NCBI GenBank assembly: GCA_964016885.1
Contig: OZ024744.1
Location: 113,026,001 to 113,090,000 of the forward strand
DNA from: Eledone cirrhosa
Taxonomy: Eukaryota
Length of the DNA stretch: 64,000 bases
Direction of reading: 5' to 3'
Shown here one piece after another: positions 7,114-61,019 of the stretch. The position numbers were made by a program, and so were the translations under genes. How positions within the stretch are numbered: the stretch's first letter is position 1; each line of letters opens with the position of its first letter. The notes beneath the pieces are model-generated. The model was not told where the DNA came from. It did not search any database and worked only from the letters and a program-made list of their open reading frames with translations.

Positions 7114-7181
7114 CCTCATTACCAGAGGTTTCCTGAATAAGACGAATACAAGAAACGCTCTCATTCGTTCGTCAGACAAGG
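7114..7181 (-). ncRNA. Degenerate hammerhead ribozyme motif in left PLE arm
   Basis: ccttgt-CTGACGA-(stem II gaatgaga/tcttattc)-GAAAcc tct ggTA-atgagg; base of stem II mismatched. Confidence 0.55.
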
Positions 7182-9549
7182 CAATTTAAAGCATAGTGTA
7201 ATATTTGAAAAATCTCAAGAAAGGCAAAAGTTTAACAGGCAAAAAAAAATATATATAAATAAAAGTAATGCAAGAGATATATAATAATAAAATAAGGAAA
7301 TATAGTAAGGGTATGTGTATAAATGTGTGTATATGCACCTACAAATGTACATATGTGTGTATGTACAAATGAATGTGTATAGTGAAAATAATGTGTGCAT
7401 AAGTACATACATGAGGGCAAGCATATCAGTGTATGTATGACCACAAATACGTATATAATATATGTTGAAAAAAGAAATTGTAAGATAATAGAGTTAACGT
7501 ACATACAGACTCAGGGACTAAGGATTGAAATATATACACATACAAGTATGAAAGCACGCGTATAAACACACACACATGCAAGTGATATATACAGGGAAGG
7601 GAGTGTATCAGTTAAAACAGTGTCAGGCTGAAGGTCAATACATATATAAAAAATATAAAATATGAAAATGTAAATGAGAAAATATATGAGAATAAAAAAA
7701 TTAAATCAAAGAGAAAGTAAGAGGGAGGGGTTATCAATTATAAAGTAACACTAGAAAAAATAAAAATCATAGGTTCGTACATACACATATATATATATAT
7801 AAAAATATATATATAAATACGTACAGGCAAAAGCACATACATGCATACATACATACAAAAGCGCGCATACATACACACGAAGCACACATATAAATACATA
7901 CATGTACATCTAATCACACGCATGCGACCATGTATATATATATACACACACACATATATATATATATATACATATACACACACACACACATATACATATG
8001 TATGTAAAAAACATAAATATAAAAACACACATACACACGCACATACGAATGCATTCATACACATATACAGACACGTATACATACACATGCATGCTCACAC
8101 ACATAGATACAATATAAAAACCAGCCATAAGAATAAATGAGTACAAATTATACGCAAGTAAACATACATAAAAGCTGCTGCGGGACAACAGAATATATCT
8201 GGAGTTGAAAACGCAAGTGATATGTGATATCAGGTAGTGAAAGAAAAGGGGGAAGTAAAATATGTAAAATTGTGAAGAAATAAAGTAAGTGAATCAAAAA
8301 GCAGGGGGAGGGTCACTGGTGGATGTGAAGTAAAAATAAAGTTAAAAATAAAAGTAAACCAGAAAGAGAAGTCTGTAAAGAGGGTAATTTAAGGAAAGTG
8401 AAGAACAAGAGTTTATGGAGGATAACTATCTGAAAGTGAGTTAAGTTTATATGAGCTGGAAAGCAAGTGTGATTATATATATATACAAAATTTCTGTTTT
8501 TGCATTTAGGCAGGTTTTTGGTGATTTAAGGTTCTGTAAAATCCAATATTTTTCACTTATGCAGAGTGTGCATCTTCTTGTTCCTCTTGCATATTCTTTA
8601 GATTGGTTCAAAATTTACCAATCTAATTTATATTGAATCCCATATTCTGCTAGCCAGAGCTGTTGTAAATCTTTTTTCAGGATGTCGGAAAGATGTGACA
8701 TGTGAGTAATAACGCGATATGAATTTGTCTTGTGTCATACCCACATATCGTTCGCTGGTGGCTGGTAGGTTGTTGCTGGTGGTTGTCACTTTAGCCGCAT
8801 ATACAATGGCTTTGGTGTTGCATTTACCTTGTAATGGGCATTCACTTTTGACTCTGCAAGAGCAATTTTGATGTTCTCTGGTTATTTTCCTATTGAGGAT
8901 ATAAGATTTAATAGGGGAACTGCAGGAGTAGCTGATTTTGACACAGTTTCTATTGAAGATCTTATAGTATCTATGTGTTCTAGGGAAATGTTTATCTAAG
9001 AGCTCTAGGAATTTTTTGCCTACATTAGTTTTAACTGCTAAAGAGTAGGGGGTGGGTGAACCAGATTATTTTTCTTTTCCTATTATTATGTTTAAAGGAG
9101 TTAGTATTGTTGGGTATGTACTTATTTTTAACTTTATTTTTACTTCACATCCACCAGTGAACCCCCCCCCCCCCCTCCCTGCTTTTTTATTTACTTTCTT
9201 TATATCTTTACAATTTGACATATTTTACTTCCCCCTTTTCTTTCACTACCTGATATCACATATCACTTGCGTTTTCAACTCCAGATATATTCTGTTGTCC
9301 CGCAGCCACTTTTATGTATGTTTACTTGCGTATAATTAGTACTCATTTATTCATACGGTTGGTTTTTATATTGTATCTATACGTGTGAGCGTGCATGTGT
9401 GTGTATACATGTCTGTATATGTGTATGAATGCATTCGTATGTGCGTGTGTATGTGTGTTTTTATATTTATGTTTTTTACATACTTATGTATATGTGTGTG
9501 TGTATATGTATATATATATATATGTGTATATATATATATATCATTTTCA

Positions 9550-9887
9550 ACATCATCATTTCATTTTACGTCCGCTTTTTCCCTGCTTGCAAGGGTGGGA
9601 CGGGAACTGATTCTGGCTTGATTTCTACAGCTGGATGCCCTTCCTAACACCAACCTCATTTACAGTGAGTGCTGGGTGCTTTTTTGCCGTGGCACCTCCA
9701 CGACCACTTTGCAGTGGAACGATATGGACCCCAGTCCCTATCATCTCATTTCTACAGCTGAGTAAACTGGAGCAATGTGAAATAAAGTGTCTTGCTCAAG
9801 GACACAACACATCACCCGGTCTGAGAATTGAACTCACAACCTTTCGATTGCAAGGCCAATGCTCTAACCACTAAGCCATGTGCCTCC

Positions 9888-9888
<1 letters not shown>
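9550..9888 (-). mobile_element. tRNA-derived SINE (family B) with RTE-type 3' tail, inserted in right PLE arm
   Basis: Head GGAGGCACATGGCTTAGTGGTTAGAGC...GAGTTCAATTC (A/B boxes); body GTGTCCTTGAGCAAGACAC; tail GCGGACGTAAAATGAAATGATGATG; absent from the left arm. Confidence 0.85.
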
Positions 9889-9949
<61 letters not shown>

Positions 9950-10686
9950 GGTCGCGTGCATGCGTGTGATTAGTTGTACATGTATGTATATATATGTGCT
10001 TCGTGTGTATGTATGTACGCATGTATGTACGCATGTATGTGCTTTTGTCTGTACGTATTTATATATATGTGTGTATGTACGAACCTATGTATGTTTTTTA
10101 TTTTTTCTAGTGTTACTTTATAATTAATAACCCCTCCCTCTTACTTTCTCTTTGATTTAATTTTTTTATTCTCATATATTTTTTCATTTTCATTTTCATA
10201 TTTTATATATGTATTGACCTTCAGCTTGACACTGCTTTGACTGATACACTCCCTTCCCTGTATATATCACTTGCATGTATGTGGTTGTGCGTGTGTGTGT
10301 GTTTATACGCGTGCTTTCATACTTGTATGTGTATATATTTCAATCCTTAGTCCCTGAGTCTGTATGTACGCTAACTCTATTATCTTACAATTTCTTTTTT
10401 CAACATATATTATATACGCATTTGTGGTCACACATACACTGATATGTTTGCCCTCATGTATGTACTTATGCACACATTTTTTCACTATACACATGCATTT
10501 GTACATACACACATATGTACATTTGTAGGTGCATATACACACATTTATACACATACCCTTACTATATTTCCTTATTTTATTTTTATATATCTTTTGCATT
10601 ACTTTTATTTATATTTTTTTTTTTGCCCATTAAACTTTTGCCTTTCTTGAGGAGATTTTTCAAATATTTCACTATGTTTTAAATGG

Positions 10687-10754
10687 TCTTGTCTGACGAA
10701 TGAATGAGGACGTTTCTTGTATTCGTCTTATTCGGAAAACCTCTGGTAATGAGG
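10687..10754 (+). ncRNA. Degenerate hammerhead motif in right PLE arm
   Basis: tcttgt-CTGACGA...GAAAacctctggTA-atgagg; mirror of 7114-7181. Confidence 0.5.
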
Positions 10755-10784
10755 TAATTATATTGTATTGTTTATTATACATAC

Positions 10785-13587: not shown

Positions 13588-13636
13588 AATGTCACTGATG
13601 AGAGATTAATGAATCTTGAAACAGCTGTCTGACATT
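13588..13636 (+). ncRNA. Minimal type-I hammerhead ribozyme
   Basis: aatgtca-CTGATGA-gagatt aatg aatctt-GAAAC agct GTC-tgacatt: perfect 7-bp stem I, 6-bp stem II, palindromic ACAGCTGT stem III, GUC cleavage triplet. Confidence 0.85.
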
Positions 13637-17248: not shown

Positions 17249-17557
17249 ACGTTTGAATTTGTAAAGCCAAAACAATGCAGGTATGGACATAGAATAAAAA
17301 TGTAAAAGATATTGTTGACAATTAGTCTTTTACTTTAGATTAACCAGTGTTCTAAATACCTTGCCAAGTCATTGACTTGGCAAGGTATTTAGAACACTGG
17401 TTTAACCGCTTTACTTCCCTCCGAAGAAGAGAAAAATATCTCGAAAATTAAGGACATTTAAATAAATCTAAAGTAAAAGACTAATTGACAACAATATCTT
17501 TTGCATTTTTATTCTATGTCCATACCTGCATTGTTTTGGCTTTACAAATTCAAACGT
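17249..17557. repeat. Nested fold-back element (about 93-bp outer arms, 30-bp inner hairpin)
   Basis: 17249-17341 is the reverse complement of 17464-17557; 17342-17402 is a near-perfect palindrome. Confidence 0.9.
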
Positions 17558-18784: not shown

Positions 18785-19314
18785 GCTGTTTCTGGTCTGT
18801 CTATAGGGACCAGGCAGATCTGGAGGTGGCTGTTTCTGGTCTGTCTATAGGGACCAGGCAGATCTGGAGGTGGCTGTTTCTGGTCTGTCTATAGGGACCA
18901 GACAGATCTGGAGGTAGCTGTTTCTGGTCTGTCTATAGGGACCAGGCAGATCTGGAGGTAGCTGTTTCTGGTCTGTCTATAGGGGCCAGACAGATCTGGA
19001 GGTAGCTGTTTCTGGTCTGTCTATAGGGGCCAGGCAGATCTGGAGGTAGCTGTTTCTGGTCTGTCTATAGGGGCCAGACAGATCTGTAGGTAGCTGTTTC
19101 TGGTCTGTCTATAGGGGCCAGACAGATCTGGAGGTAGCTGTTTCTGGTCTGTCTATAGGGGCCAGGCAGATCTGGAGGTAGCTGTTTCTGGTCTGTCTAT
19201 AGGGGCCAGGCAGATCTGGAGGTAGCTGTTTCTGGTCTGTCTATAGGGGCCAGGCAGATCTGGAGGTAGCTGTTTCTGGTCTGTCTATAGGGGCCAGACA
19301 GATCTGTAGGTAGC
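18785..19314. repeat. 44-bp minisatellite, about 12 copies
   Basis: Unit GCTGTTTCTGGTCTGTCTATAGGGGCCAGGCAGATCTGGAGGTA. Confidence 0.95.
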
Positions 19315-21176: not shown

Positions 21177-23450
21177 ACTCCTGTAGGTAGCCAACACCAC
21201 CCCAGTAGCAGTGAGTAGGGAGGTGGTCTGGAGACCAAGAACACCAGAAGTCTCTACTGTTATAGGTTTAACAAGACAGTCCACTTCATGTGGCTCACTC
21301 CTGTAGGTAGCCAACACCACCCCAGTAGCAGTGAGTAGGGAGGTGGTCTGGAGACCAAGAACACCAGAAGTCTCTACTGTTACAGGTTTAATAAGACAGT
21401 CCACTTCATGTGGCTCACTCCTGTAGGTAGCCAACACCACCCCAGTAGCAGTGAGTAGGGAGGTGGTCTGGAGACCAAGAACACCAGAAGTCTCCACTGT
21501 TACAGGTTTAACAAGACAGTCCACTTCATGTGACTTACTCCTGTAGGTAGCCAACACCACCCCAGTAGCAGTGAGTAGGGAGGTGGTCTGGAGACCAAGA
21601 ACACCAGAAGTCTCCACTGTTACAGGTTTAACAAGACAGTCCACTTCATGTGGCTCACTCCTGTAGGTAGCCAACACCACCCCAGTAACAGTGAGTAGGG
21701 AGGTGGTCTGGAGACCAAGAACACCAGAAGTCTCCACTGTTACAGGTTTAACAAGACAGTCCACTTCATGTGACTCACTCCTGTAGGTAGCCAACACCAC
21801 CCCAGTAGCAGTGAGTAGGGAGGTGGTCTGGAGACCAAGAACACCAGAAGTCTCCACTGTTACAGGTTTAACAAGACAGTCCACTTCATGTGACTCACTC
21901 CTGTAGGTAGCCAACACCACCCCAGTAGCAGTGAGTAGGGAGGTGGTCTGGAGACCAAGAACACCAGAAGTCTCTACTGTTACAGGTTTAACAAGACAGT
22001 CCACTTCATGTGGCTCACTCCTGTAGGTAGCCAACACCACCCCAGTAACAGTGAGTAGGGAGGTGGTCTGGAGACCAAGAACACCAGAAGTCTCCACTGT
22101 TACAGGTTTAACAAGACAGTCCACTTCATGTGACTCACTCCTGTAGGTAGCCAACACCACCCCAGTAGCAGTGAGTGGGGAGGTGGTCTGGAGAACAAGA
22201 ACACCAGAAGTCTCTACTGTTACAGGTTTAACAAGACAGTCCACTTCATGTGGCTCACTCCTGTAGGTAGCCAACACCACCCCAGTAGCAGTGAGTAGGG
22301 AGGTGGTCTGGAGACCAAGAACACCAGAAGTCTCCACTGTTACAGGTTTAACAAGACAGTCCACTTCATGTGACTCACTCCTGTAGGTAGCCAACACCAC
22401 CCCAGTAGCAGTGAGTAGGGAGGTGGTCTGGAGACCAAGAACACCAGAAGTCTCCACTGTTACAGGTTTAACAAGACAGTCCACTTCATGTGACTCACTC
22501 CTGTAGGTAGCCAACACCACCCCAGTAGCAGTGAGTAGGGAGGTGGTCTGGAGACCAAGAACACCAGAAGTCTCCACTGTTAGAGGTTTAACAAGACAGT
22601 CCACTTCATGTGGCTCACTCCTGTAGGTAGCCAACACCACCCCAGTAACAGTGAGTAGGGAGGTGGTCTGGAGACCAAGAACACCAGAAGTCTCCACTGT
22701 TACAGGTTTAACAAGACAGTCCACTTCATGTGACTCACTCCTGTAGGTAGCCAACACCACCCCAGTAGCAGTGAGTGGGGAGGTGGTCTGGAGAACAAGA
22801 ACACCAGAAGTCTCTACTGTTACAGGTTTAACAAGACAGTCCACTTCATGTGACTCACTCCTGTAGGTAGCCAACACCACCCCAGTAGCAGTGAGTAGGG
22901 AGGTGGTCTGGAGACCAAGAACACCAGAAGTCTCCACTGTTACAGGTTTAACAAGACAGTCCACTTCATGTGACTCACTCCTGTAGGTAGCCAACACCAC
23001 CCCAGTAGCAGTGAGTAGGGAGGTGGTCTGGAGACCAAGAACACCAGAAGTCTCTACTGTTACAGGTTTAACAAGACAGTCCACTTCATGTGGCTCACTC
23101 CTGTAGGTAGCCAACACCACCCCAGTAGCAGTGAGTAGGGAGGTGGTCTGGAGACCAAGAACACCAGAAGTCTCCACTGTTACAGGTTTAACAAGACAGT
23201 CCACTTCATGTGGCTCACTCCTGTAGGTAGCCAACACCACCCCAGTAGCAGTGAGTAGGGAGGTGGTCTGGAGACCAAGAACACCAGAAGTCTCCACTGT
23301 TACAGGTTTAACAAGACAGTCCACTTCATGTGGCTCACTCCTGTAGGTAGCCAACACCACCCCAGTAACAGTGAGTAGGGAGGTGGTCTAGAGACCAAGA
23401 ACACTAGAAGTCTCTACTGTTACAGGTTTAACAAGACAGTACACTTCATG
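21177..23450. repeat. 120-bp tandem repeat, about 19 near-identical copies
   Basis: CTGTAGGTAGCCAACACCAC recurs every 120 nt from 21181 to 23341. Confidence 0.97.
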
Positions 23451-23924
23451 TGGACTGTCTTGTTAAACCTGTAACAGTAGAGATTTCTGTAGGTAGCCAA
23501 CACCACCCTAATAGCAGTGAGTAGGGAGATGGTCTGGAGACCAAGAACTTCAGAAGTCTCCACTGTTACAGGTTTGATCACAAACCTACCAGCAAGAACC
23601 ACAAATAATTTGTTATTTTAACGTTGGCACAAAACACAGTGAATTAAAGCCACTAGAGACCTAAATTAGTCCCTATTTTATCCTCAATGTATTAGAGACC
23701 AATATTAAGTGCAATGGGATTTGAAGATGTGAAAGTAATATAACCCAAAAGTAATTTTTGTTCGATGCTCTACTGATTTTATTTTAGCCGTTTCATTCCT
23801 TTTATTGATGATGATAATAATAATAATAATAATTTTTTATTAGCAACAAGGGTCCATGAATTCAGGGAGATTACAAAAATAAAGTACATAGGAAATCAAT
23901 GAAATAGACAGATAATAATAATTG

Positions 23925-25920
23925 TTTCTAGATACCCAGCTCTAGCTAAAAAGGAATATATCAACAGGCATGATATAGTTGGGACCTTCATACACTGGAA
24001 GTTATGCCAGCATTATGAAATACCAACAGATAAAAGATGGTACACACACCAGAAAAAGTGTCAGAGCAACCATTCTCTGGGATATGTCAATATACACAGA
24101 CAGCGAGATCAAGGCCAACTGACCAGATATAGTCAAAGACCACAAAGGAAAAAATGCCTTCTAATAGATGTATCTATTCTCACAGACGACAATATATCTT
24201 CCAAGGAAATAGAGGAACTCTCCAAATATAAAGATCTAGAGGTAGAAATAACTTGAATGTGGAAAATGAAAACAAACAATACCTATAATAATAGGTGCTC
24301 TAGGAATGATAAAACACAGACAAATAAATAGCCAAACCCCAGGACTTACAAATATATACAGCATACAAAATATAGCACTACTAGGTACTGTATATATATT
24401 ATATAGAGTACTACAGGACTTACAAATATATACAACATACAAAAGATAGCACTACTAGGTACTGTGTATATATTATATAGAGTACCACAGGACTTACAAA
24501 TATATACAACATACAAAAGATAGCACTACTAGGCACTGTGTATATATTATATAGCGTACCACCGGACTTACAAATATATACAATATACAAAAGATAGCAC
24601 TACTAGGTACTGTATATATATTATATAGAGTACCACAGGACTTACAAATATATACAGCATACAAAAGATAGCACTGCTAGGTACTGTATATATATTATAT
24701 AGAGTACCACAGGACTTACAAATATATACAGCATACAAAAGATAGCACTACTAGGTACTGTATATATATTATATAGAGTACCACAGGACTTACAAATATA
24801 TACAGCATACAAAAGATAGCACTACTAGGCACTGTATATATTATATAGAGTACCACAGGACTTACAAATATATACAGCATACAAAAGATAGTACTACTAG
24901 GTACTGTATATATATTATATAGAGTACCACAGTACTTACAAATATATACAACATACAAAAGATAGCACTACTAGGCACTGTATATATATTATATAGAGTA
25001 CCACAGTACTTACAAATATATACAATATACAAAAGATAGCACTACTAGGCACTGTATATATATTATATAGAGTACCACAGGACTTACAAATATATACAAC
25101 ATACAAAAGATAACACTACTAGGTACTGTATATATATTATATAGAGTACCACAGGACTTACAAATATATACAGCATACAAAAGATAGCACTGCTAGGCAC
25201 TGTATATATATTATATAGAGTACCACAGTACTTACAAATATATACAACATACAAAAGATAGCACTACTAGTTACTGTATATATATTATATAGGGTACCAC
25301 AGGACTTACAAATATATACAACATACAAAAGATAGCACTACTAGGTACTGAATATATATTATATAGAGCACCACAGGACTTACAGCATACAGAAGATAGC
25401 ACTACTAGGTACTGTATATATATATATAGAGTACCACAGGACTTACAAATATATACAGCATACAAAAGATAGCACTACTAGGTACTGTATATATATTATA
25501 TAGAGCACCACAGGACTTACAGCATACAGAAGATAGCACTACTAGGTACTGTATATATATATATATAGAGTACCACAGGACTTACAAATATATACAACAT
25601 ACAAAAGATAGCACTACTAGGTACTGTATATATATATTATATAGAGTACCACAGGACTTGCAAATATATACAACATACAAAAGATAGCACTACTAGGCAC
25701 TGTATATATATTATATAGAGTACCACAGTACTTACAAATATATACAACATACAAAAGATAGCACTGTACACATATTACAAAAAGTATTATCAATACAATA
25801 GAAACAATATCAGAAAAAACTACACTGCACATACCCAAGGTACACAGAGCTGTGCTCAGTGAAGCAGTAATGACGTGCAACAAAAATAACGGTAATAATA
25901 ATAATAATAACAGTAATAAT
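23925..25920 (+). mobile_element. R4/Dong-like non-LTR retrotransposon 3' end (restriction-like endonuclease), degraded
   Basis: PALAKKEYINRHDIVGTFIHWKLC...ILWD..IYTD..IKAN.PDIV...CLLIDVS...SKYKDL..EI..MW...PIIIGALG...IQKIALLGT; (TAA)n tail near 25895. Confidence 0.85.
24340..25765. repeat. About 70-72-bp minisatellite, about 20 copies, inside the R4-like element
   Basis: Unit CAGGACTTACAAATATATACAGCATACAAAAGATAGCACTACTAGGTACTG(TA)nTTATATAGAGTACCA. Confidence 0.93.
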
Positions 25921-25995
25921 TTCTTATTTGCATTGAATTTTTAGATTTTTCATAAATGAACTGATGGGATGCTGTTGAGTACATTCTCAATAACG

Positions 25996-26522
25996 AGTGG
26001 TATTACTGTTATACTAAGTCAACCATCCAGTGGTATTACTGTTATACTAAGTCAACCAACCAGTGGTATTACTGTTATACTAAGTCAACCAACCAGTGGT
26101 ATTACTGTTATACTAAGTCAACCATCCAGTGTATTACTGTTATACTAAGTCAACCAACCAGTGGTATTACTGTTATACTAAGTCAACCAACCAGTGGTAT
26201 TACTGTTATACTAAGTCAACCATCCAGTGGTATTACTGTTATACTAAGTCAACCAACCAGTGGTATTACTGTTATACTAAGTCAACCAACCAGTGGTATT
26301 ACTGTTATACTAAGTCAACCATCCAGTGGTATTACTGTTATACTAAGTCAACCATCCAGTGGTATTACTGTTATACTAAGTCAACCATCCAGTGGTATTA
26401 CTGTTATACTAAGTCAACCAACCAGTGGTATTACTGTTATACTAAGTCAACCAACCAGTGGTATTACTGTTATACTAAGTCAACCATCCAGTGGTATTAC
26501 TGTTATACTAAGTCAACCATCC
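25996..26522. repeat. 33-bp minisatellite, about 16 copies
   Basis: Unit CAGTGGTATTACTGTTATACTAAGTCAACCA(A/T)C. Confidence 0.95.
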
Positions 26523-26784
26523 AACAACAGATTAGGTTTGTTTGGCTTCCACACAGTTTCTGCCTACCAGATCCACTGTGAAGACTTAGAATAACATGAC
26601 ACTATAGCAGAAGTTACTTGCTTCATGTATGAATGTGATATTGGGTGAGAAGGAATAGTCTTAACCACACAGCAATGCTTGCATCTCTTTGGGATTTCAT
26701 TTTTAATGTTTACACTTTTTCCTAAACATATCTTTTTTTTAAATCAGATTATTATTATTGTTACCGTTAACAATGATAATAATA

Positions 26785-26965
26785 ATTGTTTCTACTTTAG
26801 GCACAAGGCCAGCAAATTACCCAGTGCATTACTGGTACTTTATTTTATCGACCCCGTAAGGATGAAAGGCAAAGTTAACCTCAGCGGGATTTGAACTCAA
26901 ATCGTAAAGAGACGTAACTCTATGCTGGAAAGCAGGGCGTCCGACCCTCTACCGATACTGCCAAA
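26785..26965 (-). mobile_element. SINE family A
   Basis: Reverse complement of the family A consensus (GGTACTTTATTTTATCGACCCCGTAAGGATGAAAGGCAAAG). Confidence 0.85.
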
Positions 26966-27107
26966 ATAATAATGATAATAATAATTGTTTCTACTTTAGG
27001 CACAAGGCCAGCAATTACCCAGTACATTACTGGTACTTTAATAATAGTAATAGTAAAGCAGTGGATTGGCAAAATCAATTTGAACCTTTTTTTTTTTAAT
27101 TATTACG

Positions 27108-27322
27108 TGGATTGGCAGTATCGGTAGAGGGTCGGACGCCATGCTTTGCAGCATAGAGTTACGGCCCTTTACGGTCTGAGTTCAAATCCCACCTAGTTAA
27201 CTTTGCCTTTCATCCTTACGGGGGGTCGATAAAATAAAGTACCAGTAATGTACTGGGGTTGATTTAATCGACTTTTCCCCTCCCCCTAAAATTATTGGCC
27301 TTGTGCCTAAATCAGAAACCAT
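27108..27322 (+). mobile_element. SINE family A
   Basis: GTGGATTGGCAGTATCGGTAGAGGGTCGGACG...GGCCTTGTGCCTAAATCAGAAAC. Confidence 0.85.
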
Positions 27323-28304
27323 TATTATTATTATTACAGTTCACTTTTATTAGGGGATAAGGTATTGTTTTGTTTGTATTACAAAAGAATCCAAAACAGA
27401 CTTACTGACCTCGACTCCCCACCCCAACCTATCTCTCTCTCCCTGCTAAACTGAATAATAATAATGCTTTCTTTATTTATGATAATAATAATAATGAGAG
27501 CAATTATAATTACTATAGTAATTTTCTAATTTATTTTCAATGAATATATGCCACAAGATGTATTATCTGCCACCCACTACCATCACCACCCCACCATTAT
27601 TACCTTGTCATCTCCATTATTATCTCATAATACCCTCTCATTTCACATTTTTCATATCATCATCTTAATTTTTAAAATTATATCTTTTTTCATATTTTAA
27701 TGATTTGAAACTAGCGCAATACATGTTTTTATGCATGAATCATAATATATATATATATATGATGATGATGACCATCATCATTGTTTAACGTCCACTAGCA
27801 AGGGTTGGACAAGCCTACATAGACCAAGTCAGTACCAAAGTGAGGTTACTGATCTCCCAGACAGGCCAGAGATCTGTTGTCTCACTTATGTATTATTTCA
27901 CATTCTACTGAGTGCACAGAAGAGGATCTTTGATACAACTGAGGGCTGCTCCCAAACCCTTTGTTTAGAAAGTTGAAAGTTTTCTATGGTTGGATGCCCT
28001 TCCTATCACCAATGACTTTAGAATGAACTGGGTGTTTTTTATCATGTAGATCACCAACACTAGGGTGGTTGTCATATCTTTGACACAACTGAGGGCTGCT
28101 CCCAAACCCTTTCTCTGGCAGGCTTTCTATATATGTGTGTGTGTGTGTGTGGTCATCACCTATGCTAGCTACATCATGTTTATGTAATTATTTACATAAT
28201 TGACAGTACAGTCAACTGTAGTAATTGGTGATACCTACACAAGTGGTGAAGGACCATTGTCAGACCACATCTTCCTCACACTATTAACAAAAGCCATTAT
28301 TATT

Positions 28305-29880: not shown

Positions 29881-29964
29881 CATACGTTATATATATATAC
29901 ATACGTTATATATATATACATACGTTATATATATATACATACGTTATATATATATATAGGAAAA

Positions 29965-30140
29965 TAGTCAGGACCCCGACGGCTGAGCTCCGGCCCTTTC
30001 GACAGCTAGGTCAAAACAGCCGGAGCTCAGCCGTCGGGGTCCTGACTCTTTTCCCATTACCCACTCTACAACCCTAAGTATCGGGTACTCTGGTGCGTTA
30101 TGGTCCACCTGGTTCCTTACCACACTTCCTTCATTATATA
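29965..30140. repeat. Short GC-rich hairpin element in (TA)n; related copy at 53205-53343 in opposite orientation
   Basis: GTCAGGACCCCGACGGCTGAGCTCCGGC...GCCGGAGCTCAGCCGTCGGGGTCCTGAC plus the shared flank GGTGCGTTATGGTCCACCTGGTTCCTTACC. Confidence 0.8.
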
Positions 30141-30142
30141 TA

Positions 30143-30176
<34 letters not shown>

Positions 30177-30324
30177 TATATATAAATATGTATATATATA
30201 TTATAGTTATATATATATATGTATATTTGTATATATATATATACACACATTATAGATATATATATATATTTATATACACATATATATATATATACCATGA
30301 TATTAAATAAATGGAAACTATATT

Positions 30325-30385
30325 TATTCTATTATATATATTTCAAGGGCACCAAAACTTTGGTACGCTTTCATCAGATAAAATA
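30325..30385 (-). ncRNA. Minimal type-I hammerhead ribozyme
   Basis: Exact reverse complement of 30516-30576. Confidence 0.75.
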
Positions 30386-30515
30386 CAAAGTTTGTTTTAT
30401 AAATATTGACATAACCAAGAAAAATACCTTAACAGTTCAAGTTTTTCTTGGATAGTTAACTGGAACCGTTAAGGTATTTTTCTTGGTTATGTCAATATTT
30501 ATAAAACAAACTTTG

Positions 30516-30576
30516 TATTTTATCTGATGAAAGCGTACCAAAGTTTTGGTGCCCTTGAAATATATATAATAGAATA
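30516..30576 (+). ncRNA. Minimal type-I hammerhead ribozyme
   Basis: tattttat-CTGATGA-aagcgtaccaa agtt ttggtgccctt-GAAAT atat ATA-atagaata. Confidence 0.78.
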
Positions 30577-30712
30577 AGTATGGTTTTATAAATATAGTTT
30601 CCATTTATTTAATATCATTGAATATTATACTCCAGAAAACTTGTTGAGTGCTTCGAATCAGTTATAAACATTTATATTTGTTGAATTACCAACAAATTGA
30701 ATATCCCTTATG

Positions 30713-30754
<42 letters not shown>

Positions 30755-31682
30755 ATATATATATATATGATGATTTATGTGTATATATATATATTTATGC
30801 ATAATATATATACATAAATATATATATATATAAATATATACACATAAATATATATACATAAATATATATATATATATATCATCATCATCATCACCGTTTT
30901 TTGGAAGAACGGACGTAAAACGGTGATGATGATGATGATATATATATATATATATTTATGTATATATATTTATGTGTATATATTTATATATTTATATATA
31001 TATATATATATTTATGTATATATATTATGCATAAATATATATATATACACATAAATCATCATCATCATCATTTGAAGCGGACATAAAATGAGGGTGATGA
31101 TGATGATTTATATGTGTATATATATATATATATTTATGCATATATATATATATATATTATATATATATATATATTATATTTATATATACATATATATATA
31201 TATATATATTAAAATAACAGATTAAAGTTTAAGCAAAGAATCACTGCGTTTGTGTGAGTATGCGGGTTCATAGATATGTAGGGTGTGTGTATATGTGTAC
31301 TTTGTGTTTTGGTTGACGTACGTTTCGCGAATGTTTAGCATATGTGTATTTACCTGTAGGTATGTGTGTGCGCACATTATATACGTATTTATGTGTGTAT
31401 ATTTATATACGCTTATATAATTATATGTATACACGCACACACACACATATATTTTTTTATATATAATTTCATGTGTATTTGGTGTATACGTTCGTATGTG
31501 TGTGGGTTCTGTATGTGCGTGCATGTTTTTTTGTGTACTGCTAGTATTTGCATACCCATGGCGGGTGTTTTCTCGTATGCATGTGATTGTACGTATATGG
31601 ATGCGTGCATGTATATATTTAATATTTGTTGATTTCGATTTTATTCTTAACTCTGAAGCTGGGGATCATTCGGTTTCCTAGA

Positions 31683-32100
31683 TAGAATTTTAGTCTACGA
31701 CTTCAGTTATACCATAAACGTGGTTTTGTCTTTGCGTGTAATTGTTCTCACTGTTCCTCATAATGACGTATTATCTTCGTTTTTTCCGTTCATTGTCAGA
31801 GAACGTCTCCATGAACCACCTAATAGAATATTAGTCTACGACTTCATTTATACCATAAACGTGGTTTTGTCTTTGCGTGTAATTGTTCTCACCGCTCCTC
31901 ATAATGACGTATTATCTTCGTTTTTTCCGTTCATTGTCAGAGAACGTCTCCATGAACCACCTAATAGTATATTAGTCTATGACTTCATTTATGCCATAAA
32001 CTTGGTTTTGTCTTTCTGTGTAAGTGATTTCACCGCTTCAAATAATGACGTATTATATTCGTTTTTTTTCCATTCTTTGCCAAGGAACGTTTCCACGAAC
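31683..32100. repeat. 141-bp tandem triplication
   Basis: TAG.AT.TTAGTCTA.GACTTCA recurs at 31683, 31824 and 31965. Confidence 0.9.
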
Positions 32101-32181
32101 CAAAGTATCGTCTTCCTGTCTTCCTTTGGTTGCAACGTTTTTCGAAATATTTACTTCTGCGTTTACAGATTGATTTTTTTT

Positions 32182-32232
32182 AGTTTCAGAAGATCCCGTT
32201 AAGGGTGAAAGCAGCGATTCTTTGCTTAAACT
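32182..32232 (+). ncRNA. Variant hammerhead motif (CAGAAGA core), same family as 14878
   Basis: agttt-CAGAAGA-t ccc gttaa ggg t-GAAAgcag cgattct ttgcTT-aaact. Confidence 0.45.
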
Positions 32233-32612
32233 TTAATCTGTTATTTTAATAAATATTTGCTCTACGGTTCTTATATATTTGATATATATTTATCCTTATC
32301 GAGCCCTCTTTGGATTTTAGTCTTCAAATTTATTATTATTACTATATATATATATATATATATATATTATATTTATATATATATAGACACACACACATTA
32401 TATATTCATATGTATATATATTATATATTTATATATATCATATATATATATATATTTATATATATCATATATATATACATATTTATATATATATACATAT
32501 ATATATATATTATATATATTATATTTATATATTATGTGTTTATATATATTATATATATAAGGGTAAAAGTAGCGATTCTTTGCTTAAACTTTAATCTGTT
32601 CTTATAATAAAT

Positions 32613-32667
<55 letters not shown>

Positions 32668-32859
32668 TATACATATATAATATACATATATATATATTTA
32701 TATATATATATATGTATATAACCAAAAGTTTATATGGTTCGTTGATTATTCAACGAATTCAATTTTACAACAGATTAGAAGCACTCAACAAAAATTTTTC
32801 TGGAGTATCTATAACATTATTCAAAATATTAATAAATGAGAAATATCATAACCAAAATA

Positions 32860-32926
32860 TATATTTTATTATACATATTTCAAAGGTACAATGGTGTGTC
32901 AGTACGTTTTCATCAGATAAAATATA
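32860..32926 (-). ncRNA. Minimal type-I hammerhead ribozyme
   Basis: Inverted copy of 33076-33142. Confidence 0.7.
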
Positions 32927-33075
32927 CAAGAGACTGGATATGAGACATACCGCTAAGGTACTGGAATCATCAATTGCTGTAGTGGCAAATGTTGAGGGTT
33001 GATGAAATAACTTACTGCACTACAGCAATTGATGATTCCAGTACCTTAGCGGTATGTCACATATACAATCTCTTA

Positions 33076-33142
33076 TATATTTTATCTGATGAAAACATAC
33101 TGACACACCATTGTACCTTTGAAATATGTATAATAAAATATA
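33076..33142 (+). ncRNA. Minimal type-I hammerhead ribozyme
   Basis: tatattttat-CTGATGA-aaacatac...gtaccttt-GAAAT atgt ATA-ataaaatata; perfect 10-bp stem I. Confidence 0.7.
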
Positions 33143-34017
33143 TACTTTGGTTATGATATTTCTCATTTATTAATATTTTGAATAATATTATATAGATATA
33201 TACACATACATACAGATATATTTGTTTATCACCATTCACCCATCACCAACCTATCAATACCACTTACATATTTAAGCTATTTATTAAAATAATGTATTTA
33301 TTTATTTATTTTATTTATTTTGTTAACATATTTATTCCCCTCCACCCCTCAAAGAATTACTGTTAATTCTTAAATTGCATTTATTTACACAGAGCCCACC
33401 TCTCTTTGCTATTTATCACCACACCAGCTGCACCCTCTACCTTTCATTTACACCTTAGAAATGAATTCTTCAAAGTTTTTCCTCACCTTCATCATCATTA
33501 TCATCATCATCTTTATTATTTTTCAAAAATCCATTTCGTAAACTTTAAAAAAAAAAAACTTTTAATCGATAACGAAAAAATAATTGTTTAATTTTTATTT
33601 TTCATATTTCTTGTTTTATTCTTTTCTTTCTTTTTCTTTACATTTTATTTATTTATTTGTTTATTTTTTTCTATTTATTTTGTTATTTTAGCGCTGAATT
33701 GTATATACATATATATATGTGTGTGTTTATGTGTATATATATATATAAACATGTGCACACACATATACATATATGCTGTTTTTTTAATCTATGTCCCCTA
33801 ATGTTGAGAGCTTCTTTCTTCAGAAATTTTTATAAAAATTTAAAACATATCTGAGGGGGTATTTTATTTATTTTTTCTATTTATAATTTTTTTATTAATA
33901 AGTAATCGATTAATTAAGTTAAATTTTCTGCAATAAGGACAGAATTAAGAAATTATCATTTCATTTTTTGTAAATCATTATGAATTTTTAATGTATATAT
34001 ATATATAAATACATACA

Positions 34018-34129: not shown

Positions 34130-34442
34130 TACTATAAGAATAAAGGAACAAAGATTCAGTGTTACATCATAACATATTTAATAACATATTACATATGTTT
34201 CACTATCAATCAGCTCGAGGAATGACCTATTATTGATCAAACCTGACTCTGTAATCGAAAGATCATCAAATATGTTTCCTATATGAGATGAGATTACATA
34301 GGAAACATAACTGATGATCTTTCGATTTCAGAGTCAGGTTTGATCAATAATAGGTCATTCCTCGAGCTGATTGATAGTGAAACATATGTAATATGTTATT
34401 AAATATGTTATGATGTAACACTGAATCTTTGTTCTTATAGTA
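34130..34442. mobile_element. Fold-back element (about 140-bp arms) carrying a hammerhead-like motif
   Basis: Arms are reverse complements. Right arm 34305-34396: acataa-CTGATGA-long stem II-GAAAC atat GTA-atatgt. Confidence 0.7.
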
Positions 34443-34553: not shown

Positions 34554-34609
34554 ACTGCCTGATGAGGTCATAGCCATTCAATGGTTATCATCGAAATATA
34601 TATAGCAGT
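34554..34609 (+). ncRNA. Minimal type-I hammerhead ribozyme
   Basis: actgc-CTGATGA-ggtcatagccat tca atggttatcatc-GAAAT atat ATA-gcagt, followed directly by AAATAAA. Confidence 0.8.
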
Positions 34610-35294: not shown

Positions 35295-36350
35295 TGGTCT
35301 AATACATCTGGTCTAATATATATCACAAGATCTAGTCTAATATAAACCACAAGATGTGGTCTAATATATACCACAAGATCTGGTCTAATATATATCACAA
35401 GATCTAGTCTAATATAAACCACAACATCTGGTCTAATATATACCACAAGATCTGGTCTGGTCTAATATATATATCACAAAATCTGATCTAATATATATCA
35501 CAAGATCTGGTCTAATATATATCACAAGATCTGGTCTAATATATATCACAAGGTCTGGTCTAATATATATCACAAGATCTAGTCTATCACAAGATCTGAT
35601 CTAATATATATCACAAGGTCTAGTCTAATATATATCACAAGATCTGGTCTAATATATATCACAAGATCTGGTCTAATATATATCACAAGGTCTAGTCTAA
35701 TATATATCACAAGATCTGGTCTAATATATATCACAAGATCTGGTCTAATATATATCACAAGATCTGGTCTAATATATATCACAAGATCTGATCTAATATA
35801 TATCACAAGATCTGGTCTAACATATATCACAAGATCTGGTCTAATATATATCACAAGATCTGGTCTAATATATATCACAAGATCTGGTCTAATATATATC
35901 ACAAGATCTGATCTAATATATATCACAAGGTCTAGTCTAATATATATCACAAGATCTGGTCTAATATATATCACAAGATCTAGTCTAATATATATCACAA
36001 GATCTGGTCTAACATATATCACAAGGTCTAGTCTAACATATATCACAAGATCTGGTCTAATATATATCACAAGATCTGGTCTAATATATACCACAAGATC
36101 TGGTCTAACATATATCACAAGATCTAGTCTAATATATATCACAAGATCTGGTCTAATATATATCACAAGATCTGGTCTAACATATATCACAAGGTCTAGT
36201 CTAATATATATCACAAGATCTGGTCTAATATATATCACAAGGTCTAGTCTAATATATATCACACGATCTGGTCTAATATATATCACACAAGGTCTAGTCT
36301 AATATATATCACAAGATCTGGTCTAATATATATCACAAGATCTGGTTTAA
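35295..36350. repeat. 24-bp minisatellite, more than 40 copies
   Basis: Unit TCTGGTCTAATATATATCACAAGA. Confidence 0.95.
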
Positions 36351-36981
36351 TATATATATCTATTACACTGAAACACAAAAACTACAGTAAGTGAAATTCA
36401 GATAAATTTCTCCTCCAGACCAAACCAAAGACACCACTATCCACCTTCCATTTTACTTCTTTATTTTAAAATTATTCTATTTTACCATTTGTCTTAACAT
36501 TTACGTGCTTCAAAAGATTATCTTGTTTTTACTATTGCCACACATTTACAAATGTTTCCCATATATTACCAACGTAATATTCTGTTTCTTCCTTCTCTGA
36601 AACCCACCCCCACCACCATGCCCTACAACACTTAAATTCGTCCATTTCTTTTATTCTGCATTTTCTTAAATTTAACACAAAAATGTTGTTGTGGACACAC
36701 AGACACACACACACACACTCACAAAATTAGATTAATTCATATTTTCATGTCGAATACACACGTTTCGCTGTGGTGTTATTTCTACAGTTCATCGATCTGA
36801 TATCTTAGATTGAACATATGAAAATGTGAATTTAATCTAATTTTGTATATTACAACTCAGACAGAGCAATCTACTAACTTTGAATATAAAAATATTTTCA
36901 TGTAATTCATTCACTATATATACATATATATATACATACATATATATATATATATACATACATATATATATATATACATAC

Positions 36982-41170: not shown

Positions 41171-42960
41171 ACACTAGTAAGTTACTACATTTTGTTGTCA
41201 GTAGAGGCAGTTATATAACTAAACACTAGCAAGTTACTACATTTTGTTGTCAGTAGAGGCAGTTATATAACTAAACACTAGCAAGTTACTACATTTTGTT
41301 GTCAGTAGAGGCAGTTATATAACTAAACACTAGCAAGTTACTACATTTTGTTGTCAGTAGAGGCAGTTATATAACTAAACACTAGCAAGTTACTACATTT
41401 TGTTGTCAGTAGAGGCAGTTATATAACTAAACACTAGCAAGTTACTACATTTTGTTGTCAGTAGAGGCAGTTATATAACTAAACACTAGTAAGTTACTAC
41501 ATTTTGTTGTCAGTAGAGGCAGTTATATAACTAAACACTAGCAAGTTACTACATTTTGTTGTCAGTACAGGCAGTTATATAACTAAACACTGGCAAGTTA
41601 CTACATTTTGTTGTCAGTAGAGGCAGTTATATAACTAAACACTAGCAAGTTACTACATTTTGTTGTCAGTAGAGGCAGTTATATAACTAAACACTAGCAA
41701 GTTACTACATTTTGTTGTCAGTAGAGGCAGTTATATAACTAAACACTAGCAAGTTACTACATTTTGTTGTCAGTAGAGGCAGTTATATAACTAAACACTA
41801 GCAAGTTACTACATTTTGTTGTCAGTAGAGGCAGTTATATAACTAAACACTAGCAAGTTACAACATTTTGTTGTCAATACAGGCAGTTATATAACTAAAC
41901 ACTAGCAAGTTACTACATTTTGTTGTCAGTAGAGGCAGTTATATAACTAAACACTAGTAAGTTACTACATTTTGTTGTCAGTAGAGGCAGTTATATAACT
42001 AAACACTAGCAAGTTACTACATTTTGTTGTCAGTAGAGGCAGTTATATAACTAAACACTAGCAAGTTACAACATTTTGTTGTCAGTAGAGGCAGTTATAT
42101 AACTAAACACTAGTAAGTTACTACATTTTGTTGTCAGTAGAGGCAGTTATATAACTAAACACTAGCAAGTTACTACATTTTGTTGTCAGTAGAGGCAGTT
42201 ATATAACTAAACACTAGCAAGTTACAACATTTTGTTGTCAGTAGAGGCAGTTATATAACTAAACACTAGTAAGTTACTACATTTTGTTGTCAGTAGAGGC
42301 AGTTATATAACTAAACACTAGCAAGTTACTACATTTTGTTGTCAGTAGAGGCAGTTATATAACTAAACACTAGCAAGTTACTACATTTTGTTGTCAGTAG
42401 AGGCAGTTATATAACTAAACACTAGCAAGTTACTACATTTTGTTGTCAGTAGAGGCAGTTATATAACTAAACACTAGCAAGTTACTACATTTTGTTGTCA
42501 GTAGAGGCAGTTATATAACTAAACACTAGCAAGTTACAACATTTTGTTGTCAGTAGAGGCAGTTATATAACTAAACACTAGTAAGTTACTACATTTTGTT
42601 GTCAGTAGAGGCAGTTATATAACTAAACACTAGCAAGTTACTACATTTTGTTGTCAGTAGAGGCAGTTATATAACTAAACACTAGCAAGTTACTACATTT
42701 TGTTGTCAGTAGAGGCAGTTATATAACTAAACACTAGCAAGTTACTACATTTTGTTGTCAGTAGAGGCAGTTATATAACTAAACACTGGCAAGTTACTAC
42801 ATTTTGTTGTCAGTAGAGGCAGTTATATAACTAAACACTAGCAAGTTACTACATTTTGTTGTCAGTAGAGGCAGTTATATAACTAAACACTAGCAAGTTA
42901 CTACATTTTGTTGTCAGTAGAGGCAGTTATATAACTAAACACTAGCAAGTTACTACATTT
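41171..42960. repeat. 52-bp minisatellite, about 34 copies
   Basis: Unit ACACTAGCAAGTTACTACATTTTGTTGTCAGTAGAGGCAGTTATATAACTAA. Confidence 0.97.
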
Positions 42961-45949: not shown

Positions 45950-47270
45950 CTTGAAGGTTTATATATTGTCAAAGATGTTTTGTCACACATTCTGTGACCT
46001 CCTCAGTGACTAGGTTTTTATTTTGTGTCTTTCCTTTGTTCTGTCCTACACCATCTTGTTGTGTGTTATGTACTTAGTTTGCGCATGCGTTACATCCGGG
46101 TGTGTGTTTGTGTGTTTATTTACTTGTCACTAGTTTTTTTTTTTTCATTCTGTTTGATATGTTTTGTTAGCTTGTTTTTTGTGTGTGTCTGTATGTCTTC
46201 ATTTTATTGCTATTCCACTCATTTTCTGTTTAATTTTGATTGGAGTTCGCTTATGTTTGTTGCCTCTGTGATTTACCTGAACATTGCATCTTTTCTATGT
46301 GTGGATATAATCTCTATGTTCTCAAGTGCACCCCTATGTTCTATTTTGGCATGTTACTGGAGTACTGATGAGTTTTTCCTATCCTGGAGTTCTCACCAGT
46401 GTTCACTTATCCTTTCTCCTATGCTATGTATGTTGCATTCTTATTCCTACACTCAGTACATCTGATGCTATATACTACGTTCCTAGTTTTGCAGTTAATT
46501 TGTGGGCTTAGCTTTCATTTCCTATCAGCACAGGGGGGATCTTTGAAGTGAGTATGTTTTGCTAATTAGAGTTTTTATGGAAATACCTAGTCTTTCAACT
46601 ATCTTAATATTTAATTTGACATTGTCTAAATCTGTATGCTAGGAGTTGTATTAATAAACTCTGGTAGTTATTGCTATCATACCATGAGTTTATTTTATTT
46701 GCCTTATTCCTAATCCTTTCTAGTCTGTTCCATGGGGCAAATTCCATTTGCATCATTTCCTACAATCTTTGAAAGATACCCCATGTGCTGATAGAAAATG
46801 CATAGTCTGCAAGCTAACCCGCCAATTAACTTCAAAACTAGGAAAGTAGCATAAGTGAACTCTGGTGAGAACTCCAGGATGGGAAAAACTCATCAGTACT
46901 CCACCAGCATGCCAAAATAGTTATAAAATTATAAATAGTTATAAAAATTATATCCAGACACAGAAAAGATGCAATACTCAGACAAATCACAGAGGCAACA
47001 AATATAAACGAACTCCAACCAGATTTAAACAGCACAACTAGTAATTAAGGATAAAATGAAGATATACACACAAAAACTAAGAAAAGAAATCAGACAGACA
47101 CAAACTAAATAAAAAATAAATAAAAACACACACACACACGCATGCGGAGACTAGGCACCCAACAGACAAAAACAAGATGGTATAGGCGTGACACACAAAA
47201 TAAAAGCTTAGTCACTGATGATGTCAAACCCAAAATGCGCGCATGCTTTTATTGACAACATGACAACATT
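45950..47270 (-). mobile_element. Penelope-like element 3' fragment (GIY-YIG) with inverted partial copy
   Basis: 45950-46760 is homologous to 53740-54600; about 46765-47270 is an inverted, deleted copy; degenerate hammerhead at 45968-46010. Confidence 0.8.
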
Positions 47271-53130: not shown

Positions 53131-53340
53131 ATGTATATGTATGTATATATATATATATAAATATATATATGTATATACACATATATATATATATGTATAT
53201 ATATAACAAAGGAAATGAGGTAAGGAACCAGGTGGACCATAACGCACCAAAGTACTCAATACTTAGGGTAGTAGAGTGGGTAATAGGAACGAGTAGGACC
53301 CCAACGGCTTGAGCTCAGCCGTCGGGGTCCTACTCGTTCC

Positions 53341-53635: not shown

Positions 53636-55363
53636 ATATTGTTATACTTTGGGAGGGTCATGTTGCCAATAAGAAACACACGCACCAGTTGCTTTCTTTC
53701 CAATTTATTCGAAATTAAATTATATATTTAAGAAATGTATAAAGTTCTTTCGTCACACATTCTGTGACCTCATCAGTGACTGGGGATTCTTTTCTTTGTT
53801 TTGTGCCTCTCCTTTGTTCTGTCCTACGTCATCTTGTTTGTGTGTGTGTTGTGTGCTTAGTTTGCGCATGTGTTACATCCGGGTGTCTGTGTGTGTTTTT
53901 ATTTGTTTATTTACATGTTACTAGTTGGTTGTTTGTTCTATGTGTGTTTTCATTTTGTCCTTAATTGTAAGTTGTGATGATGCTATTTCATTCATGTTTT
54001 CTATTTAATTTTGGTTGGAGTTCATTTATGTTTATTGCCTCTGTGATTTGTCTAAACATTGGGTCTTTTCTGTGTGTAGATTTTATTTTTATTTCTATGT
54101 TCTCTAATTTACCTTTATGTTCTATTTTAGCATGTTGGTGGAGTACTGATGAGTCTTTTCTATCATGAAGCTCTCGCCAGTGTTCATTTAATCATTCTCC
54201 TATACTACAAGCTGTCTCACCTATGTACACTATATTCTTATCTTTACATTGTCCCTCAGTACATCTTATGCTATATACTATGTTTCTAGTTTTGCAGTTA
54301 ATATGGGGGCTTAGTTTACAGATTATGCATTTCTTATCTATACAGGGAGGTCTTTGAAAAGGGTATGTATTGCTAATAAGTGTTTTTATGGAGGTACCTG
54401 GTCTTTCCACTATCTTAATATTTAGTTTAAGTTTATCCAGGGCCCTTCTAAATTTGTAAGCTAGTTAACCTCTAGGGGTTGTATTGATGAACATTACAAT
54501 CTGGTATTTATTGCTATCATACCATGAGTTTATTCTATTAACTTTTTTCCTAGTTCTTTCTATTCTATTCCAAAATTTGCTCCTATACAAGGGGCAGGTC
54601 CCATTTATATCATTATTTACAATTTTTTTATGGATGGTGGATTGGCAGTATCGGTAGAGGGTTGGACGCCATGCTTTGACGCATAGAGTTACGGCCCTTG
54701 CCATTCTGAGTTCAAATCCCGCCGCGGTTAACTTTGCCTTTCATCCTTACGGGGTCGATAAAATAAAGTACCAGTAATGTACTGGTTAATTTCTGGCCTT
54801 GTGCCAATAGTAGAAACAATTATTTACCTTTTTTTCCCCATTTGGTTCTGGCTCCTCTATATACTCTGATTTTATTTCTCTGATTGTAACCAGAGAACTG
54901 CATACGGTGGATGAAGTGTTGTATGTGTCTCTCTAGTTCTTTGGGGTTGCACATGCAGGACACGTTTCTCATCACCCGTACCAAATCCGCAATCAGTATG
55001 TTGATTTTGGTATGGTCCGAAACAGCTGAGTTTCGGTGGATCAGCTATTTGGAAGTCATGGGTTTGGCATAATGGGAATGGAGGATTTGTTTTTTGTTAT
55101 TAATGGTTTCTAACCAGAGCTCTGTGTCTAGTACAGGTAATCGATGGTTGGGGTGTTTGCTTGGGTAGTCTATAGTAACTCTAATACTCTGGTGGATGGA
55201 GTTAGCTATTTGCTGGATGCTTTCCATGGTGTTTTTCTCTAATTCCTGACTGTTCTCTAGTGGGGGTGTTTTTACTACGATGTTTATATCATTAATGTAG
55301 CGAGAGTACATAATCAGCGTTAACAGGTTGTTGTCTTCTAATTGTTCTTTAAGTTTATTATCC
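53636..55363 (-). mobile_element. Penelope-like element (Naiad-like), RT C-terminus + GIY-YIG + 3' hammerhead remnant
   Basis: YSRYINDINIV...TIDYPSKHPNHRLPVLDTELW...HYAKPM (RT); NIVYSIRC...C...VYIGETA.SIGE.LNEH...QH...H...RQITEA.NI (GIY-YIG); hammerhead core on the minus strand at 53741-53781. Confidence 0.87.
54633..54822 (+). mobile_element. SINE family A inserted in PLE
   Basis: Consensus match interrupting the PLE ORF. Confidence 0.85.
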
Positions 55364-60100: not shown

Positions 60101-60115
60101 TATATGTATATATAC

Positions 60116-60165
<50 letters not shown>

Positions 60166-60552: not shown

Positions 60553-60560
<8 letters not shown>

Positions 60561-60849
60561 ATCAAAAGATGGTTAACGGAGTTCCATGTATTTTATTATG
60601 CGCATTTCAAAAACAAACATCATCATGCAATAATATTTGTGGATAACACTTGTGGATAGTGCAGTTTTAAATCAACATATGATATGTTGATTTAAAACTG
60701 CACTATCCATAAGTGTTTTTTAGCCTTCATATCATGTTCTCCTGTTTTATCTGATGAAAACACAAATATTATTGCATGATGATGTTTGTTTTTGAAATGC
60801 GCATAATAAAATACATGGAACTCCTTTAACCATCTTTTGATCTTATATT
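60553..60849. mobile_element. Nested fold-back element with hammerhead, in (TA)n
   Basis: Outer arms about 60553-60641 and 60760-60849; inner hairpin about 60645-60717. Confidence 0.78.
60745..60811 (+). ncRNA. Minimal type-I hammerhead ribozyme
   Basis: ttttat-CTGATGA-aaac acaaatattatt gcat gatgatgtttgt tttt-GAAAT gcgc ATA-ataaaa; palindromic ATGCGCAT stem III. Confidence 0.8.
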
Positions 60850-60933
60850 ATGTATACTCCAGTCCTACAAACTGTAGAGTGCTTCTTATCCGATATCTGC
60901 ATTGCTTTATTGTACTACAATAAAACTCACCTC

Positions 60934-61019
<86 letters not shown>

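Follow-up and report, generated by a model that had tools for sequence, protein, structure and literature searches.

Three short fold-back inserts, here called A, B and C, lie in a 64,000-nt stretch of the Eledone cirrhosa genome (assembly GCA_964016885.1, contig OZ024744.1, positions 113,026,001 to 113,090,000; hereafter the window, numbered from its first letter). Each consists of two inverted arms set head to head between (TA)n tracts, and one or both arms carry a minimal type I hammerhead ribozyme motif. Judged from sequence, the inserts are 5′-truncated pseudo-long terminal repeat (pLTR) ends of three related protein-coding families of Hydra-type Penelope-like elements (PLEs). The window hammerheads were located by motif scan and the fold-backs by self-BLAST (30297-30618, 32820-33182 and 60558-60844).

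30135..30294: (TA)n tract left of A, a likely target site
30295-30715: element A, whose arms meet at 30457
30295..30457 (-): tail-less inverted arm of A, covering family A pLTR positions -80 to about +100 counted from CUGAUGA
30333..30377 (-): hammerhead motif of this arm, predicted cut after AUA at 30333
30457..30715 (+): tail-bearing arm of A, pLTR from -67 to about +190
30524..30568 (+): minimal type I hammerhead motif of this arm, loop III ATAT, 2-bp stem III
30622..30715 (+): one-sided tail of A, about 90 nt between two fixed 3′ ends
32720-33195: element B, tail on the minus strand
32720..32987 (-): tail-bearing arm of B, pLTR from -71 to about +195
32870..32916 (-): hammerhead motif of this arm, loop III ATGT
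32986..33195 (+): tail-less arm of B, starting at -100
33086..33132 (+): hammerhead motif of this arm
60558-60935: element C, hammerhead in the plus arm only
60558..60681 (-): tail-less inverted arm of C, 5′ (CUGAUGA) half of the hammerhead deleted
60682..60935 (+): tail-bearing arm of C
60751..60805 (+): hammerhead motif of C, loop III GCGC
30716-31209, 32343-32720, 60102-60557 and from 60936: further (TA)n tracts, likely target sites

Because B has its tail on the minus strand, it is oriented oppositely to A. In all three inserts the short arm ends about 100-114 nt past CUGAUGA and the long arm about 190-200 nt past it, the excess of about 90 nt being the shared tail; over aligned positions the inserts are 77-82% identical to one another. 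The left arm of A has lost 14 nt immediately beyond stem I. Since the tail-less arm of B starts at -100, it includes 27-29 nt of the upstream 3′ untranslated region (UTR) of the long element, which are absent from the tail arm of B. A terminal hairpin lies in each tail (30676-30697 on the plus strand, 32738-32757 on the minus strand and about 60905-60925 on the plus strand), some 20 nt before the outer 3′ end. It is present in 92 of 100 tail-bearing copies and shows compensatory pairs between subfamilies (T-A 57 against C-G 21; G-C 56 against A-T 23), three of its pairs being fixed by the search pattern itself; it is a candidate recognition signal for the reverse transcriptase (RT). Among the 150 of 233 Rfam matches listed for the window there is no hammerhead family, and microRNA matches are driven by microsatellites.

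An earlier note on this DNA had described A and B as palindromic elements embedded in (TA)n, with a minimal type I hammerhead on each strand, a common consensus and a shared tail. Motif scan and self-BLAST recover all of these features, save that the fold-backs are asymmetric, with the tail on one arm only. The third member that it placed near 60745 exists as element C, with a hammerhead in one arm rather than two.

Parent elements in the Hydra clade

Exact matches to the hammerhead core pattern number 33,505 in the 3.0-Gb genome, whereas a reversed control has none, so the pattern is not due to chance, and the many further copies expected by the earlier note are found. The tail arm of A is 94% identical to the 3′ pLTR of a copy bearing RT and endonuclease (EN) sequence (L061) and 91% identical to the 5′ pLTR of another (L085); that of B is 91% identical to the 3′ pLTR of an RT/EN-bearing copy (L165), and that of C is 98% identical to the 3′ pLTR of L148, which carries an intact Hydra-type open reading frame (ORF). 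In longer A copies the pLTR is preceded by about 1.1 kb of UTR and then by an ORF with RT and GIY-YIG domains, in keeping with the earlier proposal that a PLE-encoded RT is the likely mobiliser. Among 15 extended EN loci, 13 have the A pLTR downstream of the EN and in matching orientation, L085 has it before the ORF, and one lacks it. Hydra-type ORF pieces occur together with the B pLTR at 6 of 10 long-B loci and inside 6 of 8 long C fold-backs.

For family A, the best 30 loci were taken of at least 41 matches from 1,801 candidates. All 30 share a common 3′ end and vary at the 5′ end; the inverted arm is short in 13 and distant in 4, one locus has a downstream tail-to-tail copy, and 12 have no hammerhead-region inverted arm within 1.5 kb.

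The ORF of L148 is open for 821 codons (800 aa counted from Met). This single frame contains the motifs Q-F-D, YRDD and LIY..YFG, and it encodes RT followed by a C-terminal GIY-YIG EN. An RWK-like motif lies near the N-terminus (RWT in C, RWR in A), and the DKG to DKT change is seen in A (L085) and C. In C, the linker CxCx5C reads CNCRIKNKC, the GIY-YIG spacer is short, CNLC (CxxC) and CLH (CxH) are present, and CCHH is absent; A and B share the linker, the short spacer and CxxC. The Hydra clade is defined by RWK, DKT, the CxCx5C linker, absence of CCHH, and CxxC and CxH around conserved E and N (Craig et al. 2021, PMC8557442). On all of the motifs compared, the present elements belong to these EN-bearing (EN+) PLEs. 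Nematis was rejected as the clade on comparison with the Hydra motifs. The asparagine-rich stretches between RT and EN (L148:1629-4091; L085:3673-5190) recall the N-rich inserts described for rotifer Penelopes (PMC3846280).

The likeness to published Hydra members such as Penelope-13_HM and Hydra-1_Obim extends from the single ORF, with RT then GIY-YIG, and the clade motifs to a hammerhead near the 3′ end, (TA)n targets and an inverted 5′-truncated copy with hammerheads on both strands. The supplement of the clade description gives (TA)n targets for nearly all Hydra families, and its entry for Penelope-13_HM records both an inverted 5′ copy and hammerheads on the two strands (PMC8557442). Unlike these, the present families have a hammerhead sequence that differs from the rows of File S2 compared, the octopus member Hydra-1_oBim included, a 3′ UTR of about 1.1 kb, an element longer than the usual <3 kb, a tail of about 90 nt and a very high copy number. 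The element protein has 979 homologues, nearly all unnamed, with identity up to 46%. Literature searches, which covered titles, the opening of abstracts and few subscription papers, returned no description of these families or of twin priming in PLEs; the A, B and C families may be uncatalogued, while their architecture is already published.

Genomic copies and the origin of the inverted arm

Arms of all three families end in (TA)n. Of 160 arms, 138 have a run of (TA)4 or more at the 3′ end (A 59/68, B 30/40, C 49/52), against a background of 11.8% of random 28-mers in the window, and the (TA)n targeting claimed earlier is thereby upheld. Close copies face each other: among the first 100 pattern matches on one contig (C1), neighbours within 500 nt are head to head in 14 of 14 cases, with direct neighbours in 0 of 14, and neighbours within 6 kb are head to head in 23 of 33, over gaps of 92-4993 nt (13 at 92-133 nt, 10 at 340-4993 nt). 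Genome-wide, 4,421 head-to-head pairs have a spacer of 105-135 nt and 89 direct pairs lie at 240-275 nt, the ranges covered by the counts; 17 of the latter come from one 71-bp satellite. This tandem array (G000:C8:17739316-17740748) is built from a pLTR piece that holds the CUGAUGA half of the hammerhead only.

One long and one short 3′ end are combined in 43 of 45 pairs, both at TA-like bases, so that two fixed 3′ ends about 90 nt apart delimit the tail. The 5′ ends vary around a preferred point at a pyrimidine-A step (-80 in A, -73 in B, -69 in C), within 4 nt of which lie 15 of 67, 21 of 40 and 23 of 52 arms, respectively (59 of 159 in total); the interval from -85 to -140 contains no 5′ end of an A arm. 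In L085 the full-length 5′ pLTR starts at -82 and continues into leader and ORF, from which we infer that the preferred point is likely the start of the element RNA. Junctions are diverse (33 distinct strings among 34 short fold-backs), and the arms lie between 50 nt and 5 kb apart. Neither arm contains the other in 9 of 34 short pairs, among them those of window A (13 nt) and B (29 nt); in these the tail-less arm extends 10-56 nt further 5′ than its partner.

Arms resemble their own partners. In family C, where sampling went mostly by position, partners are 0.95 nt apart over 110 nt, compared with 6.51 for arms that are not partners, and separate arm lineages are absent (tail-less against tail-less 6.25 nt, tail-less against tail arms 6.02, remaining comparison 5.81). 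Family A agrees (4.21 against 7.58) in a sample picked, like that of B, for likeness to the window arm. Arms below a similarity score were dropped from these comparisons, so decayed arms are excluded. Clustering does not separate short from long copies (p 0.22-0.77; n=21 in C, 32 in A and 28 in B, a test of low power), and the short C copy L135 equals the long copy L144 over the compared region. Three C fold-backs (L143, L145 and L147) have arms of 1.1-2.5 kb at 98-99% identity, a very long potential double-stranded RNA (dsRNA).

Taken as a whole, it is very probable that the inserts are truncated pLTR ends of Hydra-type PLEs, each with an inverted tail-less copy likely made within that same insertion; the inverted copy would thus be formed afresh each time. 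The GIY-YIG domain would cut both strands of a (TA)n tract, and the RT would prime one cDNA from each cut strand, at two internal start sites on the element RNA, the outer giving the tail arm and the inner the tail-less arm. Each cDNA would proceed to the RNA 5′ end or halt early, and the cDNA 3′ ends would then be joined, often by pairing of a few bases. A start within the 5′ pLTR of an mRNA would yield run-off products of pLTR length and hence the abundant short class, and a start within the 3′ pLTR the long class; the hammerhead would be a passenger of the pLTR. In vitro, the Poseidon PLE protein, a predicted dimer, is reported to cut and extend both strands, with RT starts at two sites bounding the tail (PMC11167929). 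The insertion unit described for EN+ PLEs (Arkhipova et al. 2013, PMC3846280; PAc in vitro, PMC11167929) likewise shows a head-to-head inversion, a one-sided tail, junction palindromes, AT-rich targets and two fixed 3′ ends. Here, unlike in that unit, the ORF begins downstream of the pLTR rather than within it, and target-site duplications are unreadable in (TA)n.

Several observations pull the other way. The tail of about 90 nt compares with 30-40 nt in the published system. A junction centred on a CATATG palindrome recurs at 10 of 50 listed loci (counted by eye); it occurs on at least three sequence variants, and its recurrence fits repeated formation at a self-complementary end. Family B does not discriminate, an arm being hardly closer to its own partner than to others (2.60 against 2.88), and its short-short distances (2.24) are smaller than its short-long ones (3.07). 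The choice of the A and B samples by likeness and the low power of the clustering test (n 21-32) count here too, as does the excess of rare variants found in one arm over those found in both (82:14, 28:3 and 40:14). Finally, neither Pfam nor searches of PDB by sequence and by profile named the RT or EN of the element ORFs: Pfam yielded just weak RVT_1 (E 0.004) and GIY-YIG (E 0.037) matches, in two homologues, and PDB only chance matches to Cys clusters, so that the Hydra assignment rests on motifs.

The same parent PLE could have produced the inverted arm by snap-back self-priming of one cDNA, or from an antisense template, with the tail left by endonuclease resolution. This route has been proposed for PLEs (PMC3846280; for the tail, PMC8557442), and it would account for the variants shared between arms and for the perfect palindromic centres at 3 of 14 short C junctions and 10 of the 50 listed loci; a palindromic RNA 5′ end, however, would equally let two cDNA ends anneal, and many junctions are blunt or contain extra bases. 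A tail-less arm that reaches further 5′ than its partner was not copied from it, nor was the partner copied from that arm, and this mutual non-containment, which departs from the published self-priming account (PMC3846280), favours two separately primed cDNAs, as do the two fixed 3′ ends and the preferred 5′ end. We regard self-priming as unlikely. Doubtful to a slightly greater degree is a cycle like that of short interspersed elements (SINEs), in which short copies reduced to the pLTR would retain an internal promoter, be transcribed and serve as templates in trans, the inversion arising new each time. D. virilis Penelope carries an internal promoter (PMC2377424), non-autonomous elements derived from pLTRs have been published, the 5′ mode is sharp, and the B pLTR returned 2,818 first-look candidates against 256 for its upstream UTR (candidates, not copy numbers). 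Yet run-off from the 5′ pLTR of an mRNA yields the same 5′ end, and short-only clusters are absent among the copies compared, although a minority short-only lineage may exist; the identity of L135 with L144 also speaks against such a cycle, and the upstream 3′ UTR in the tail-less arm of window B means that this arm had a long template.

The earlier note had favoured a separate non-autonomous, retrozyme-like family, whose fold-backs would be transcribed, self-cleave on either strand and move as a unit; it had also allowed that this idea would fall if all copies were 5′-truncated ends of an autonomous PLE, and ends of autonomous-type PLEs are what the copies prove to be. The 4,421 short fold-backs and the identical junction recurrent in family C are what a mobile unit might leave, and retrozymes do descend from pLTRs (bioRxiv 10.64898/2026.07.22.740005). 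Against this stand the diverse junctions, arm lengths that run continuously up to full ORFs, the lack of arm lineages, the 12 of 30 best A loci without a nearby inverted arm, the scarcity of direct tandems at unit spacing and a predicted hammerhead stem probability of 0.000 in whole fold-backs. The idea is thus largely refuted, and we hold it highly improbable. The inserts share with animal non-LTR retrozymes (PMC7229834 and the preprint above) a type I hammerhead, a non-coding unit of 170-400 nt and pLTR ancestry; unlike them, they are contiguous with coding PLEs, head to head rather than head to tail, and not arranged in tandem arrays. A miniature inverted-repeat transposable element or other DNA transposon was rejected on account of the asymmetric tail, the variable centre and the continuity with the RT ORF, and an assembly artefact on account of arm substitutions and deletions and of extra bases at junctions.

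Predicted hammerhead folding and possible dimerisation

The motif shows the core, the stems I and II and the palindromic loop III that mark a minimal type I hammerhead, and its earlier assignment to the PLE type is upheld. As in published PLE hammerheads (Cervera and de la Pena 2014, PMC4209133), the core is CUGANGA/GAAA/UH, stem III has 2 bp, loop III is self-complementary (180 of 191 hammerhead-like copies at fetched loci: ATAT 77, GCGC 50, ATGT 50) and compensatory changes occur at family level. Unlike the typical form described there, stem I is long and AU-rich, and the first pair after the core, G10.1-C11.1 in that account, is G-C in 2 of 191 copies and mostly A-U or G-U, a reading that depends on the register and could instead reflect an unpaired 9.1 position. 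Stem II switches from A-U to G-C (95 against 87 copies at pair 3, 168 against 13 at pair 2, of 191). The search pattern fixed the core. The covariation noted earlier is present, but in these copies it reflects just a few subfamily-level events.

Predicted folding separates single arms from whole inserts. The cost of imposing stems I and II is 0-3.5 kcal/mol for single arms but 68-95 kcal/mol, with stem probabilities of 0.000, for whole fold-backs or for transcripts ending just past the motif. On either strand the antisense arm is transcribed first, so hairpin and ribozyme are alternatives rather than joint products; in a read-through RNA the hammerhead is predicted to be sequestered in dsRNA. 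Of the ribozyme and long hairpin that the earlier note expected from either strand, only the hairpin is predicted to form in such a transcript. Stem III is predicted to be unstable in the monomer (P <=0.002), and self-pairing of the loop III region to yield -4.2 to -12.5 kcal/mol. In the element RNA, hammerhead activity is predicted to require either a dimer or the assistance of a protein, and dimer-type, weakly active hammerheads are described as usual in PLEs (PMC4209133; PMC6466107).

It is conceivable, if very unlikely, that the paired arms of every head-to-head insertion come from two RNAs held together by the self-complementary loop III (ATAT, ATGT or GCGC in the three subfamilies), the hammerhead acting to dimerise the template for an RT that is itself a dimer. 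Were this so, tens of thousands of copies would record the two start sites of the RT together with the RNA 5′ end. Published work is contrary to it: Naiads form inversions without canonical hammerheads (PMC8557442), and catalytic hammerhead mutants still insert in vitro (PMC11167929).

Neighbouring repeats and significance

Other repeats in the window resemble or adjoin the inserts. A long version of the same Hydra-type design, from another family, occupies 7095-10773; its inverted arms of about 700 nt both contain CTGACGA followed by GAAA (7175 on the minus strand, 10693 on the plus strand) and frame an EN-coding fragment (8640-9050, minus strand), and a second inverted pair lies at 8094-8351/9122-9389. 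Single hammerhead motifs of other families lie upstream of TA-rich tracts at 34559-34604 and 13595-13629 (both plus strand; loops ATAT and AGCT). A 289-nt fold-back with 95% identity, at 34146-34434, adjoins (TA)n and holds CTGATGA at 34311. At 61348-61915, inverted 203-nt arms of 99.5% identity with CTGAAGA..GAAA on both strands enclose a unique spacer, and their relatives lie at 53639-53776 and 45957-46006. A short fold-back in (TA)n with a one-sided extension, in which no hammerhead core was found, lies at 29959-30131 (relative at 53209-53316). Fold-backs of other repeat families occupy 26772-27336, 17250-17556, 23406-23488 and 55364-55525, and young minisatellite arrays with periods of 24-120 nt and 89-98% matches occupy 23-704, 1870-2892, 18785-19314, 21177-23453, 24336-25765, 25992-26523, 35306-36357 and 41171-42960.

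The element class and its architecture are already known, and the inserts are ordinary PLE debris rather than a new self-spreading RNA element. Their value lies in number and youth: very abundant Hydra-type families with an intact ORF, whose pLTR is 98% identical to window C, amount to a large natural data set that bears on how PLEs form inverted 5′ copies and one-sided tails. These families also scatter perfect hairpins through the genome in their thousands, and read-through of these would be likely to yield dsRNA.

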